Below are positions 3,752 to 8,042 of a stretch of 12,743 nucleotides of DNA, one piece after another (position 1 is the stretch's first letter; every line of letters starts with the position of its first letter). Both the position numbers and the translations under genes were made by a program. Source of the DNA: Escherichia phage ECO95 1-6-1. The stretch lies in the sequence record OR845264.1. One strand, written 5' to 3'. Below the pieces are notes generated by a model. The model ran no database searches. It had not been told where the DNA came from and saw nothing but the letters and a program-made list of their open reading frames with translations.

Positions 3752-3792
3752 TTTCTAATCTCCGTAATTCTGTATCAGCAGTTGATAGTTGT

Positions 3793-3821
3793 ATAGTACC
3801 ACAGTATGCTTTGGATGTAAA
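3793..3821 (-). promoter_or_regulatory. T4-type early promoter upstream of motA
   Basis: - strand: -35 TTTACA (plus 3816-3821), 17-nt spacer, TGG + TACTAT -10 (plus 3793-3798), A/T-rich upstream tract. Shares a 21-nt identical core with the copy at 7439-7467. Confidence 0.5.
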
Positions 3822-3840
3822 CCGGTTTGTGAAAAAAATT

Positions 3841-3873
3841 TTAAAATAAAAAAGGGAGAGCCGAGGCTCTCCC
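3841..3873 (-). terminator. Rho-independent terminator after the gene 52 / small-ORF transcript
   Basis: - strand RNA: GGGAGAGC-CUCG-GCUCUCCC (8-bp GC-rich stem, 4-nt loop) followed by UUUUUUAUUUU. Immediately downstream of the TAA of the 49-aa ORF. Confidence 0.6.
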
Positions 3874-3878
3874 TAAAA

Positions 3879-4028
3879 TTACTGCATGACTGTGATAACT
3901 GTCATGATAACACGTTGAATTCCGAACGCAAGAAGACCTCCTGCTACGGCTGGAACAACACCTAAACCCGCTAGTAAAATGCTACCAGATACTAAGGCCG
4001 CACTCGTGATACCGATGAATGGACTCAT
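3879..4028 (-). CDS. Small hydrophobic 49-aa protein (motA.1-like position), predicted membrane peptide
   Basis: ATG overlaps the gene 52 TGA (ATGA), preceded by GAGGAAA. Sequence MSPFIGITSAALVSGSILLAGLGVVPAVAGGLLAFGIQRVIMTVITVMQ is almost entirely hydrophobic. Followed directly by the terminator. Confidence 0.45.
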   Translation of the reverse strand: MSPFIGITSAALVSGSILLAGLGVVPAVAGGLLAFGIQRVIMTVITVMQ

Positions 4029-5353
4029 TTGATTTCCTCTAAATCTTTGGTGTATTCTGTAACTACATCAGTAGTTTTCCAATATTCGTTTTCTTCTTTT
4101 TTAGCTTTAGCTTCTTCAGCAAGTTTCTTTGCTTCATCGGAGGTCATATGAAAAATATTCATTCCAACTAATTTATCAACATAAGAAGAATACATATCGA
4201 TTTTCGAAAGTTCTTCGGTCAGTTCTTTACGAGTTTTACCCTGTACAACAATTTCACCTGAAATTACTTTCTTGATGAAATGTGCCTTGGCAAAGGCTAA
4301 ACGAAAAGCTGATTCAGTTTCTTTAATTTTGTTATCAATTCGTTTTTGAACATAAGTTTTACGAACTTCAACAAAGTCTTTGATTAAATCAACTACGTTA
4401 TCGTAAACTTGTAGTTTTCCTTTCTCATTAATAACCGTAATATTCTGAGAACGACGCTCAATCAACCCGAAGTCTTTCATAATTTTTGCATGACGTTCTT
4501 CTTCATTATCGCTCAAAGAATATTCTTTGCGGAATTTAACTTTGAATCCAAAACCATGCTCACCACAAGCATCATCCCATGTAATGAAGCCTTTATCTTC
4601 AAGCGGGTCTAAGATTTTACTCACATAAGTTTCACGATCATACTTATACGGAATCTCAGTGATATGCATTTGAGTTCGTGAAGTAAACTTATATGTTCCG
4701 CGAATTTCATATTGACCATCAATCTCAACGACTTCACCACGAAATTCTGGGAATTCTACCTTCGGTTTAGTTACTTTCTTTCCTTGAAGAGCTTGCAGTA
4801 CAGCTTTCTTGACAGAAGAAACACTATGAGGAAGAATGTAAGTTGCATAACCAGTTGCAATACCGGAAACGCCATTAAGAAGAACAGTAGGAATAATAGG
4901 CAAATAGAAAGCAGGCGGAATGTGTTCTTTATCTTGATGTACCGGAGCATATTCAGTATCTTTATATACGTTATAGAAATTTTTACTTACACGAGCAAAA
5001 ATATAACGACTTGCTGCTGCTTTTTGGACGGTACGAGAACCAAAGTTTCCTTGACCATCTAACAGAGGAAAGTTATTATTCCAAGTGTTAGCCATCAAAG
5101 CACCTGCATCTTGTGCAGAGTTTTCGCCATGATGATATCCAAGGTCCGCTACACCACCTGCAATAGAAGCGAGTTTGTGAAACTTATCTTTATTTCCTCG
5201 TGCCAAATCAAGAGCTCGAGCAATAACAAATCGTTGAACTGGCTTAAATCCATCAATCATATTTGGAATGGCACGATTTTCAACCGTGTACATAGCATAA
5301 GCCAATGCTTCATTATCAATGATACTTTTTAAATCGCGATTATTCAGTTGCAT
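4025..5353 (-). CDS. 52: DNA topoisomerase II medium subunit (GyrA-like), 442 aa
   Basis: 442 aa equals T4 gp52 length. GyrA-type breakage-reunion region, with the likely active-site Tyr in the RYIFARV segment. Synteny with motA and stp/ndd. Confidence 0.9.
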   Translation of the reverse strand: MQLNNRDLKSIIDNEALAYAMYTVENRAIPNMIDGFKPVQRFVIARALDLARGNKDKFHKLASIAGGVADLGYHHGENSAQDAGALMANTWNNNFPLLDGQGNFGSRTVQKAAASRYIFARVSKNFYNVYKDTEYAPVHQDKEHIPPAFYLPIIPTVLLNGVSGIATGYATYILPHSVSSVKKAVLQALQGKKVTKPKVEFPEFRGEVVEIDGQYEIRGTYKFTSRTQMHITEIPYKYDRETYVSKILDPLEDKGFITWDDACGEHGFGFKVKFRKEYSLSDNEEERHAKIMKDFGLIERRSQNITVINEKGKLQVYDNVVDLIKDFVEVRKTYVQKRIDNKIKETESAFRLAFAKAHFIKKVISGEIVVQGKTRKELTEELSKIDMYSSYVDKLVGMNIFHMTSDEAKKLAEEAKAKKEENEYWKTTDVVTEYTKDLEEIK

Positions 5354-5357
5354 AAAT

Positions 5358-5498
5358 TTACCATACTAGTGAATGTAGTGCCATAATAACATCAGAAATG
5401 AAAAGCACGACTTGAATTAATCCGAACATTACTCCATAATATAGTGCTACCAATAAAGTAGCAAGGGCTAATGAATAGCCCAAGATTTTCTTAATCAT
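5358..5498 (-). CDS. Hydrophobic 46-aa micro-protein (52.1-like position)
   Basis: ATG 5498-5496 overlaps the end of the ac-like ORF by 8 nt. Sequence MIKKILGYSLALATLLVALYYGVMFGLIQVVLFISDVIMALHSLVW. Stops 4 nt before the gene 52 ATG. No clear SD. Confidence 0.35.
   Translation of the reverse strand: MIKKILGYSLALATLLVALYYGVMFGLIQVVLFISDVIMALHSLVW
5383..5407 (-). promoter_or_regulatory. Candidate MotA-dependent middle promoter for gene 52
   Basis: - strand: TGCTTTT (MotA-box-like, plus 5401-5407), 12-nt spacer, TATTAT (plus 5383-5388). About 25 nt upstream of the gene 52 ATG. One mismatch in the box. Confidence 0.25.
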
Positions 5499-5646
5499 TA
5501 GATAACAACACAAATGTTAAATATGCACACATACCCTGAGCTAAAGCTTGCGAAAACACACTGCTGGCATCAATACAGATAGTTAAAACACATGCTACTA
5601 TCCAACAAATAAATGAAATAACTCCTAATAATTTTGCAATATTCAT
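5491..5646 (-). CDS. ac: Hydrophobic 51-aa membrane peptide, possibly Ac (acridine-sensitivity protein)
   Basis: RBS GAGGAAAAT then ATG. Sequence MNIAKLLGVISFICWIVACVLTICIDASSVFSQALAQGMCAYLTFVLLSND. Size and position between stp and 52 fit T4 ac. Symbol assigned from synteny and length only. Confidence 0.45.
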   Translation of the reverse strand: MNIAKLLGVISFICWIVACVLTICIDASSVFSQALAQGMCAYLTFVLLSND

Positions 5647-5653
5647 ATTTTCC

Positions 5654-6783: not shown

Positions 6784-6897
6784 TCACATAAATCCAAAGT
6801 AAGCGTTTAATACATCAATCATTAAAACGATTGGGAATATACTCAAAACTACTAGTATTATAACTACATTCCATATAGCTTTAATAATCTTTTTCAT
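6784..6897 (-). CDS. Small membrane peptide, 37 aa (the track's 82-aa version starts at TTG and reads through the promoter)
   Basis: ATG at 6897 preceded by GGAGGAACAGAAA. Sequence MKKIIKAIWNVVIILVVLSIFPIVLMIDVLNAYFGFM. The longer TTG-start version would contain the early promoter, so the short form is preferred. Confidence 0.35.
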   Translation of the reverse strand: MKKIIKAIWNVVIILVVLSIFPIVLMIDVLNAYFGFM

Positions 6898-6925
6898 TTT
6901 CTGTTCCTCCGTAGTTGATAGAGTA

Positions 6926-6954
6926 ATAGTACCACGGAAGAACAGTCTTGTAAA
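6926..6954 (-). promoter_or_regulatory. T4-type early promoter (copy C)
   Basis: - strand: -35 TTTACA (plus 6949-6954), 17-nt spacer, TGG + TACTAT (plus 6926-6931). Followed by UAUCAACU...GGAGG and an ATG. Confidence 0.45.
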
Positions 6955-6962
6955 CAACTTTT

Positions 6963-7061
6963 TTAAAAATATTCGTAATAAATGTGAATACCAACTACTA
7001 CCGCTGAAACCTGTGCAACCCACCACGCACAAGCAATAAGTACAGAATTCATAATTTTCAT
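6963..7061 (-). CDS. Hydrophobic 32-aa micro-peptide (MKIMNSVLIACAWWVAQVSAVVVGIHIYYEYF)
   Basis: ATG preceded by GAGGTTATT. Ends at TAA just upstream of promoter copy C. Very short, so speculative. Confidence 0.25.
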   Translation of the reverse strand: MKIMNSVLIACAWWVAQVSAVVVGIHIYYEYF

Positions 7062-7140
7062 AATAACCTCATCACAAAAGTAAATGTTAAACAAATTACT
7101 GGAATACTAATTAACCAAACAAAACACCACCATAATGAAC

Positions 7141-7404
7141 TCATAGTTCAATCTCAGCGATTTTCATTTCATTACTATTAATAGCCTCTTTAAGACTATC
7201 TGAAAGAATTACATTCCAGTGGTCATTCATATGACCATTAACTAAGCGTGTAATTTCTTCAGGAGTTGAAAAATAAGGCTGATCAGACTCCCAATGTGAT
7301 AATCCTAAGCGAGTATAAATCATGCCTTCATCATCGCTAGAATATTCAACTGACACAAACTCATCAGTTATTTTATGTTTAGCGTAATAAAATTTAAATT
7401 TCAT
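7141..7404 (-). CDS. Hypothetical 87-aa protein (the track's 120-aa version starts inside the denB 3' end)
   Basis: The internal ATG at 7404 has GGAG 7 nt upstream and an early promoter 35-60 nt upstream. The track's ATG at 7503 has no SD and would translate through the promoter. Confidence 0.5.
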   Translation of the reverse strand: MKFKFYYAKHKITDEFVSVEYSSDDEGMIYTRLGLSHWESDQPYFSTPEEITRLVNGHMNDHWNVILSDSLKEAINSNEMKIAEIEL

Positions 7405-7438
7405 TTTATTCTCCAAATCCGTATCAGTTGATAGTTGT

Positions 7439-7467
7439 ATAGTACCACGGTCCTTGTGGTATGTAAA
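7439..7467 (-). promoter_or_regulatory. T4-type early promoter (copy B)
   Basis: - strand: -35 TTTACA (plus 7462-7467), 17-nt spacer, TGG + TACTAT (plus 7439-7444). In the 80-nt gap after the denB stop. Confidence 0.5.
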
Positions 7468-7484
7468 CTGTTTTGTGAAATTTT

Positions 7485-8042
7485 TTAAATGGAAAGATAC
7501 CATCCGTTGTAGTTGCTTTTTCTTACAACCTTACGAAGGTCTTCTCTGTCACCGATGAACTTCGGAGTGTACTGGATGACACCTGGATGAATTTCTTTAG
7601 TGTTGAATATAATTATACAGTCAGCGACTTGATGATTTAGAATGGGCCCTAGATTTATTCCAGAACCATATGGATACTCTCCGCTGCATCCTGTTGTCAC
7701 CGAAATCCAACGTGAGTCAGTTTGGTGTGTCTTAACTTCTACACGAAGCCCGCAGTATCTTGGATGCGCCAATACATCCCATGCGTATGTATACGGGTCA
7801 TTAACATCCTCTTGGCCTTTATTAACATACCCGCTTAACCAATCTGCTACAAAAAATTCTGCGTACACAGCAATACGACATCTTTCAATAACTTCTGCTT
7901 TATCCTGGTTCGGGTTTTGTTTTAAAGAGTATCTTGCTGTATCAGCAATTTTGACCTTCATTTCACTAGTCAAGTCACTGTTCGATAGGGTAAATGTCGG
8001 AATCTGAAATAGTCTCTGTAAACCCGGATTCGTTTTCTGCAT
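7485..8042 (-). CDS. denB: Endonuclease IV (dC-specific endonuclease) DenB, 185 aa
   Basis: 185 aa, strong RBS AAGGAAAG 6 nt before the ATG. Position between rIIB-side ORFs and the ndd cluster. Length agrees with T4 DenB. Assigned by synteny and length. Confidence 0.65.
   Translation of the reverse strand: MQKTNPGLQRLFQIPTFTLSNSDLTSEMKVKIADTARYSLKQNPNQDKAEVIERCRIAVYAEFFVADWLSGYVNKGQEDVNDPYTYAWDVLAHPRYCGLRVEVKTHQTDSRWISVTTGCSGEYPYGSGINLGPILNHQVADCIIIFNTKEIHPGVIQYTPKFIGDREDLRKVVRKSNYNGWYLSI

Follow-up and report, generated by a model that had tools for sequence, protein, structure and literature searches.

The DNA analysed here is a 12,743-nt stretch (the window) of Escherichia phage ECO95 1-6-1 (OR845264.1), and all coordinates below are in window numbering. 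It covers the gp38-t-asiA-arn-motA-52-ndd-denB-rIIB-rIIA region of Tequatrovirus; by megablast, the 12.7 kb are about 97% identical to many Tequatrovirus (T4-like) genomes, and the region is colinear with T4. Within it, an exact 21-mer, TTGATAGTTGTATAGTACCAC, occurs twice, at plus-strand positions 3782-3802 and 7428-7448, and a diverged copy, TTGATAGAGTAATAGTACCAC, lies at 6915-6935. Very probably, the repeat represents a core sequence conserved among the T4-type early promoters of this T4-like phage, exchanged as cassettes of the promoter-early stem-loop (PeSL) type.

The identical 21-nt core had been recognized in the initial annotation, which gave its coordinates one base too high (3783-3803 and 7429-7449). 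The close variant that it placed at 6913-6935 is indeed a variant, but its actual position is 6915-6935, and because only 17 of its 21 positions match the 21-mer, it is missed by a search that allows three or fewer mismatches. At that threshold, none of 200 dinucleotide-preserving shuffles gave a match to the 21-mer. The identical stretch extends over 24 nt (3779-3802 = 7425-7448), and beyond a 3-nt indel the similarity resumes through GTATCAG. In addition, a repeat finder returned, as the top direct-repeat family in the window, four 56-nt copies at 3779-3834 (reference), 7425-7480 (82%), 6912-6967 (63%) and 1314-1369 (63%). Altogether, the window holds five copies of an early-promoter cassette, whose parts are as follows.

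3752..3852, - strand: motA early-promoter cassette; UP element with TTTCACAAA, -35 TTTACA 3821-3816, 17-bp spacer, TGG 3801-3799, -10 TACTAT 3798-3793, ACAACT 3792-3787, predicted +1 A 3786, Shine-Dalgarno (SD) sequence GGAG 3763-3760, ATG 3751
3782..3802, - strand: 21-mer core, copy 1; motA promoter positions -16 to +5
7405..7484, - strand: denB/ORF87 cassette; -35 TTTACA 7467-7462, spacer hairpin TACCAC/GTGGTA, -10 TACTAT 7444-7439, predicted +1 7432, SD GGAG 7414-7411 inside GGAGAATAAAA, ATG 7404
7428..7448, - strand: 21-mer core, copy 2; exact match
6898..6985, - strand: ndd.4 cassette, diverged; -35 TTTACA 6954-6949, -10 TACTAT 6931-6926, predicted +1 6919, SD GGAGG 6910-6906, ATG 6897; spacer 6945-6931 pairs with leader and SD 6915-6901
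11907..11961, - strand: rIIA.1 early promoter, a more distant relative; -35 TTTACT 11960-11955, spacer TACCACAAGGATGTGGTA (7-bp hairpin), -10 TATAAT 11937-11932, ATG 11906; upstream part in the end of the gene 60/39 coding sequence
1297..1369, - strand: asiA early promoter; TTTACA, 17 nt, TATTAT at 1356-1328; inside the asiA.1 coding sequence
3853..3874, - strand: motA.1 intrinsic terminator stem-loop, followed by a T-run at 3843-3852; the upstream stem-loop of the motA cassette

Promoter anatomy, leaders and stem-loops

The core belongs to the early promoters of motA, of the open reading frame ORF87 (87 amino acids, just downstream of denB) and of ndd.4. A cassette spans approximately 90-110 nt and comprises an A/T-rich UP element, a GTTTACA -35 element, a 17-bp spacer, TGG-TACTAT, ACAACT, a leader, an SD sequence and an ATG. 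The T4-type arrangement TTTACA-17-TACTAT is found at 3821-3793, 7467-7439 and 6954-6926, each time preceded by a G; all three copies have TGG immediately 5' of the -10 element and 25 A/T-rich nucleotides upstream, and TTTCACAAA is present in two. T4 early promoters have been described as combining UP, -35, TGn and -10 elements with further consensus regions (Hinton's review, PMC2988021). The earlier suggestion that the copies share more than their -35 and -10 hexamers is thus correct, with the full T4-type early-promoter anatomy at all three sites, and so is the suggestion that GGAG and an ATG follow the core, as each copy has a GGAG or GGAGG SD sequence and then an ATG. What had been described as initial transcribed sequence, in contrast, needs to be amended. 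The 21-mer spans positions -16 to +5, that is, a TGn-extended -10 element (TACTAT), the discriminator ACAACT, which is not transcribed, and the predicted +1 to +5, ATCAA, the only transcribed part of it.

With the start placed, as is usual, 7 nt from the -10 element, the predicted sites (the A of ATCAAC) are 3786, 7432 and 6919, giving leaders of 35 nt (motA), 28 nt (ORF87) and 22 nt (ndd.4), all in the sense of the downstream prereplicative gene. The motA cassette is nearly identical to the T4 sequence upstream of motA, and it is this near identity with T4 that points to promoter activity and to the predicted start sites in ECO95 1-6-1; the early promoters mapped by Patterson-West et al. 2018 do not include these copies. 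The two remaining promoters are more distant. The spacers of the promoters at 7467-7439 and 11960-11932 have TACCACAAGGA (11 nt) in common, as had been proposed, with a one-base offset relative to the -35 element, and the asiA promoter is the most diverged member of the repeat family (a 63% copy of family D1).

The leaders may also be sites of mRNA processing. The strong-site consensus of the phage endoribonuclease RegB with ribosomal protein S1 is GGAGRAYARAA (PMC3014915), and it is matched at 11 of 11 positions by GGAGAATAAAA in the 7439 copy and at 10 of 11 by GGAGATTAGAA in the motA copy, motA being a documented T4 RegB target; the ndd.4 leader, GGAGGAACAGA, fits poorly. MotA itself is made early, and RegB cuts its mRNA within the SD sequence (PMC2988021). 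The GGAG leaders are therefore putative RegB targets, and the match to the RegB/S1 site would explain why the cassette is conserved at its 3' end.

Stem-loops accompany the cassettes in different forms. The motA.1 terminator has nine pairs, six of them GC, in a terminator scan (-18.6 kcal/mol, z -4.6, 0 of 200 shuffles as good), and the 15-bp ndd.4 stem, which joins spacer 6945-6931 to leader and SD 6915-6901, is stronger than any of its 200 shuffles as well (-22.7 kcal/mol, z -5.7). The TACCAC/GTGGTA hairpin at 7439 is weak (-6.7 kcal/mol, z -0.96) and the hairpin at 11932 is marginal (-8.2 kcal/mol, z -2.2); on these values, the shared spacer TACCACAAGGA was rejected as a meaningful hairpin. 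The motA and 7439 leaders fold no better than shuffles. Stem-loops between the -35 and -10 elements, or overlapping the -10 element, are among the listed PeSL subclasses (Arbiol et al., PMC2839356).

In the ndd.4 stem, the 5' arm precedes the start site and the 3' arm includes the SD sequence, which recalls the promoter-containing hairpins of T4 e, soc, 49 and I-TevI that mask the ribosome-binding site in read-through RNA (PMC3014915). As in those genes, the SD sequence of ndd.4 is predicted to be free only in transcripts from the internal promoter, with an unpaired probability of 0.89 in its own transcript versus 0.00 in read-through RNA. The T4 hairpins, however, embed late promoters and delay expression, whereas the ndd.4 stem embeds an early promoter and its effect on translation is a prediction; about a quarter of T4 early promoters show SD sequestration. 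Variants of the stem in relatives (in spacer bases opposite the GGAGG purines, and a leader C to T in T4 and RB59) keep G-U pairing, and no double compensatory change was seen among these relatives. Of the 35 motif-defined T4 early promoters that form our reference set, 12 have a perfect inverted repeat, 7 bp or longer, that spans the -10 element, compared with 1.2 expected and a maximum of 5 in 200 shuffles. In 7 of 29 T4 early promoters, the SD sequence is more sequestered in read-through RNA than in all 30 shuffles. Hiding of the SD sequence by early-promoter spacers was nevertheless rejected as a general rule, with a mean unpaired probability of 0.39 versus 0.38 for shuffled spacers (Wilcoxon p = 0.98).

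A genome-wide family of mosaic copies

The core is not peculiar to the window but is a member of a genome-wide subfamily. In T4, the 18-mer TGGTACTATACAACTATC is found at seven sites, every one in early-promoter context and on the early-sense strand (before ndd.6, motA, frd.3, e.8, nrdC.10, nrdC.8 and imm.1), and T4-like contigs in IMG/VR have up to 8 copies each, before unrelated proteins. The sequences upstream of T4 motA, ndd.6 and ndd.4 are those of the window copies, almost base for base and in the same positions, with minor substitutions only; the T4 motA and ndd.6 copies share 31 nt. Compared with its T4 orthologue, the window 7439 copy is without one ACT of the leader ACTACT repeat, and the gene that follows it in the window is ORF87, which T4 has lost.

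Across the T4 promoter set, information resides at G-36, at TG at -15/-14 and from -3 to +8 (0.3-0.7 bit each, consensus ACTATCAACTA), with +1 an A in 26 of 35, while the spacers hold almost no family-wide information. Individual modules are nevertheless shared between promoters. The upstream modules of T4 motA and frd.3, for example, are identical (26/26), as are the -35/spacer modules of T4 frd.3 and nrdC.10 and those of imm.1 and ndd.4 (17/17 each); the leader of T4 ndd.6 agrees with that of imm.1 at 24 of 25 positions, and that of the window 7439 copy with that of T4 nrdC.10 at 25 of 25. In their upstream, spacer and leader modules, the copies are mosaics. Because spacers are identical in non-orthologous promoters and yet carry almost no family-wide information, these identities argue for exchange between copies rather than for selection alone.

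Could functional constraint by itself produce such a family? If every promoter and leader position were selected, with no role for recombination between copies in gene shuffling, the family-wide information from -36 to +8 would be expected, as would the fit of the SD region to the RegB/S1 consensus (PMC3014915) and the nearly unchanged state of orthologous copies across phages that differ by 3-8%. Pure constraint is at odds, however, with identical spacers in non-orthologous promoters, with the different combinations of upstream, spacer and leader modules among copies, and with recombinant junctions that fall inside conserved blocks, and we consider it unlikely. On the reading that we prefer, in which early-promoter cores are exchanged as cassettes, the likeness of the copies would have two sources: the family consensus itself spans the start site, and the exchange of segments among copies would give rise to mosaics.

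From the discriminator to about +8 (ACAACT followed by ATCAACTA), the two best copies of the window are identical, and most T4 early promoters have this block as their consensus. One might speculate that the block is a cis-target of the early-promoter shut-off that sets in a few minutes after infection, or of another early-initiation factor, and that ndd.4-type stems additionally restrict translation to own-promoter transcripts. If true, the role of the block would go beyond contacting polymerase and serving as a recombination patch, but we regard this as quite improbable. The proposal that some phage or host factor binds the block from -10 to about +8 as its operator, for instance in early-promoter shut-off, is one to which we would assign a very low probability. 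Reviews describe this shut-off as not understood (PMC3014915, PMC2988021), and ACTATCAACTA is common to most T4 early promoters; the block, however, sits where polymerase itself contacts the DNA, it varies in many active early promoters, and there is no evidence for any binding factor.

Gene-content breakpoints at the cassettes

The initial annotation had further proposed that the cassettes mark where accessory genes are likely to have been inserted or exchanged, and cassette edges do coincide with gene-content breakpoints at the motA and denB-side copies. At the motA cassette, two Tequatrovirus loci (L007 and L008) carry a 75-amino-acid ORF (ORF75) between the promoter core and motA, and ORF75 lies there between two early-promoter cassettes that share CTATCAAATAAATGAACTGAAAC.

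L008:1221-1720; L007:2881-3400 (reverse complement); L042 (JS10):1430-1880: ORF75 module; corresponds to window 3752-3802

The crossovers were placed by a three-way alignment of the window, L008 and Dhakavirus JS10. L007 and L008 are window-like up to ...ACAACTATCAA, L008 at 88-100% up to ...GTGGTACTATACAACTATCAA; both are then 98-100% identical to JS10 through ORF75 and a second, JS10-type cassette; and both return to window-like sequence at the motA SD-ATG, L008 at 96-100% from CGGAGATTA-AAATG into motA. By comparison, the gene 52 and motA regions of JS10 are approximately 74-76% identical to L008, with JS10 motA at 38-88% per 50-nt window. The crossovers thus lie in CTATCAA, where the 21-mer ends on its 3' side, and around the SD-ATG, a pattern that indicates a probable recent movement of the ORF75 module between genera. 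ORF75 is present in 142 phage records. Window positions 3740-3880 are matched by 478 records, 342 of which cover at least 80%, and the sampled partial-coverage records stop at query position 99 (window 3782), where the JS10-type module begins; in phage Pinarejo, the two matches (H76 and H100) abut.

Degraded forms of the cassette occur in the same material. In L007:3282-3330 (reverse complement), a "half" cassette has the motA.1 terminator hairpin joined straight to the promoter spacer, with the T-run, upstream element and -35 element deleted, and L041 has a similar hairpin-to-TGn fusion at another promoter. Such half-cassette forms have been described for PST (PMC4122927).

On the denB side, the variable gene is ORF87, and in the relatives sampled the cassette is followed by one of four combinations of ORF87 and a second small frame, ORF68.

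7141..7404, - strand: ORF87 (phrog_2390); variable accessory gene served by the 7439 cassette; absent from T4
ORF68 and ORF87: slur11, VIPECOOM03
ORF87 only: window, RB51
ORF68 only: T2, ESh32
Neither: T4, RB59

Every denB-side junction is at TAAAATGAAA, the SD-ATG of the cassette, which recurs at the ends of ORF68 and ORF87. Between positions 342 and 12300, the window and T4 differ by only two indels of at least 6 nt, the first of which removes ORF87 directly after the 7439 cassette; T4 retains the last eight ORF87 codons (MKIAEIEL). In the phage collection, the cassette is found in 503 records, ORF87 in about 270 and ORF68 in 118. The corresponding slot of phage PST holds ORF268 (264 nt) and ORF269 (207 nt), of the same size and order as ORF87 and ORF68. 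For ORF75, ORF68 and ORF87, a search of Pfam found nothing and PHROGs gave only families of unknown function (phrog_10955 for ORF75, in addition to that of ORF87).

These junctions also bear on a further rival reading, in which each cassette is a mobile element in its own right and a dedicated site-specific recombinase moves it by recognising the stem-loop or the core. Such a possibility was raised for the GGGG/CCCC stem-loops of RB49 (Arbiol et al., PMC2839356). The crossovers of the present cassettes, however, fall in different short identical stretches (CTATCAA, SD-ATG, TAAAATGAAA) with no one fixed site, the stem-loops vary in place and sequence between copies, and small homology patches (<50 bp) are reported to suffice for general recombination in T4 (PMC2839356), so that a dedicated recombinase seems to us extremely unlikely.

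Other repeats and indels lie nearby. An ORF of about 109 amino acids (7975-8303, - strand) is located between denB.1 and denB, overlaps the denB start and is called "endonuclease IV" in phage teqsoen; T4, RB51 and RB59 have a deletion of approximately 200 bp at window 8054-8266 that is unrelated to the promoter cassettes. A second repeated intergenic cassette on the - strand (8533-8566, 8301-8338, 9500-9514) consists of the hairpin AAGGGCTTCGGCCCTT followed by TAAGGAAAATTATG (SD-ATG) and is found after rIIB and after denB.1, with the SD-ATG part alone at the rIIA/rIIB junction. GGGC/GCCC motifs have been tied to T4 deletions (Mosig et al. 1998, as cited in PMC2839356). Finally, 5642-5669 (the start of ac) and 6772-6799 (the start of the - strand ORF 6579-6797) share TTCATATTTTCCTCAC, at 82% over 28 nt, which is another short SD-ATG repeat of the kind used at indel junctions.

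The genes of the window are listed below, their order taken from the annotation of teqsoen and T4.

+ strand: 3' end of gp38, and t (teqsoen/T4 annotation)
minus strand: asiA, asiA.1, arn to arn.4, motA (3116-3751), motA.1, gene 52, ac
minus strand: ndd, ndd.1 to ndd.6, ORF87 (7141-7404), denB (7485-8042), denB.1
minus strand: rIIB, rIIA, rIIA.1, fused gene 60/39

Genes 60 and 39 are fused (12296-12361), and the window lacks the T4 insertion that contains the 50-nt translational bypass, 60.1 and mobA. The 3' end of gp38 (window 1-336, + strand) is unlike T4 gp38 and has glycine-codon repeats of the GGCGGCGGTGG type (family D2); it seems to resemble the adhesin type of gp38 more than the chaperone type known from T4.

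Relation to PeSL elements and biological meaning

PeSLs were defined, and recombination between them was demonstrated, by Arbiol et al. 2010 (PMC2839356); the consensus for T4 and PST is TTTACW-N17-TAYWAT (Comeau et al. 2014, PMC4122927, who treat PeSLs of KVP40/nt-1 as well). This consensus fits all copies in the window. Like PeSLs, the window cassettes combine an A/T-rich region and an early promoter with a terminal SD sequence and ATG, accompanied by a strong stem-loop at motA and ndd.4, and they occur in many copies per genome; they adjoin variable small ORFs, and insertions, deletions and replacements in relatives join in or at the motA and denB-side cassettes, with crossovers between the -10 element and the ATG. 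The likeness to promoter-early modules of T4-type phages had been noted at the outset, and the same locus in fact serves as a published example. Fig. 6A of Comeau et al. 2014 (PMC4122927) presents the slot downstream of denB, with ndd.4/.5 versus PST ORF268/269, as PeSL-mediated exchange. There are also differences. The stem-loops of the window are heterogeneous, being an upstream terminator at motA, a weak spacer hairpin at 7439 and a long spacer-to-SD stem at 6926. Mini-circles arising from cassette recombination have been shown only for RB49/phi1 (PMC2839356). In addition, the T4 state without ORF87 looks like a simple deletion between AAATGAAA repeats and not like the integration of a different cassette.

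Several observations weigh against exchange of early-promoter cassettes as the full account. The 7439 stem-loop is no better than shuffled sequence (z -0.96); the denB-side indels need just 8-10 nt SD-ATG repeats and not exchange between two full cassettes; the second indel between the window and T4 (about 8054-8266) is not beside any promoter cassette; and at the ndd.4 cassette, no adjacent gene-content breakpoint was seen in the genomes sampled. The idea that the repeat reflects coding-sequence conservation, an unannotated small gene or a structured RNA can be dismissed with near certainty. Mechanically called ORFs do overlap the copies (e.g., + 3789-3965 and - 7141-7503), but all three copies of the core are intergenic on the gene (-) strand (between the motA.1 stop at 3879 and the motA ATG at 3751, the denB stop at 7485 and the ORF87 ATG at 7404, and ndd.5 and the ndd.4 ATG at 6897), so the similarity is not that of coding sequence; they stand in constant register between a -35 element, 17 bp upstream, and a downstream SD-ATG, the downstream proteins are unrelated, an Rfam search of the window matched no family, and the motA and 7439 leaders, as noted above, fold like shuffled sequence.

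We postulate the following for the exchange of early-promoter cassettes. To judge from identity with T4, unmodified host sigma-70 RNA polymerase would fire the cassettes immediately after infection, and the genes expressed from them would be motA, the group of ORF87, ndd.6 and ndd.5, and ndd.4 together with its downstream genes. The leaders, with their GGAG, would subsequently become targets of RegB. Since these short blocks precede many unrelated genes and are common to different phages, they may act as homology patches, through which small accessory ORFs could be gained, lost or swapped with a promoter and ribosome-binding site already attached. The anatomy of the cassettes, their copy family, its mosaicism and the breakpoints at cassette edges are direct observations; the recombination pathway that would connect them is one that we infer.

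The feature itself is already known as the T4 early-promoter family, whose composite form has been published as the PeSL with an example that includes this locus. The ORF75 exchange with a Dhakavirus-type donor is a new instance, and the deletion of ORF87 in T4 refines the published scenario; no new principle is involved, and current understanding is unchanged, with these cassettes one more clear example of PeSLs as published. In annotating such genomes, one can use the cassettes as markers of early transcription units and of slots in which strain-specific ORFs are to be expected. For the biology of the phage, they would explain how motA and a string of small host-takeover genes are switched on within seconds, and how accessory genes may be traded as ready-to-express modules, even between genera, as for ORF75 with its 98-100% identity to Dhakavirus JS10.

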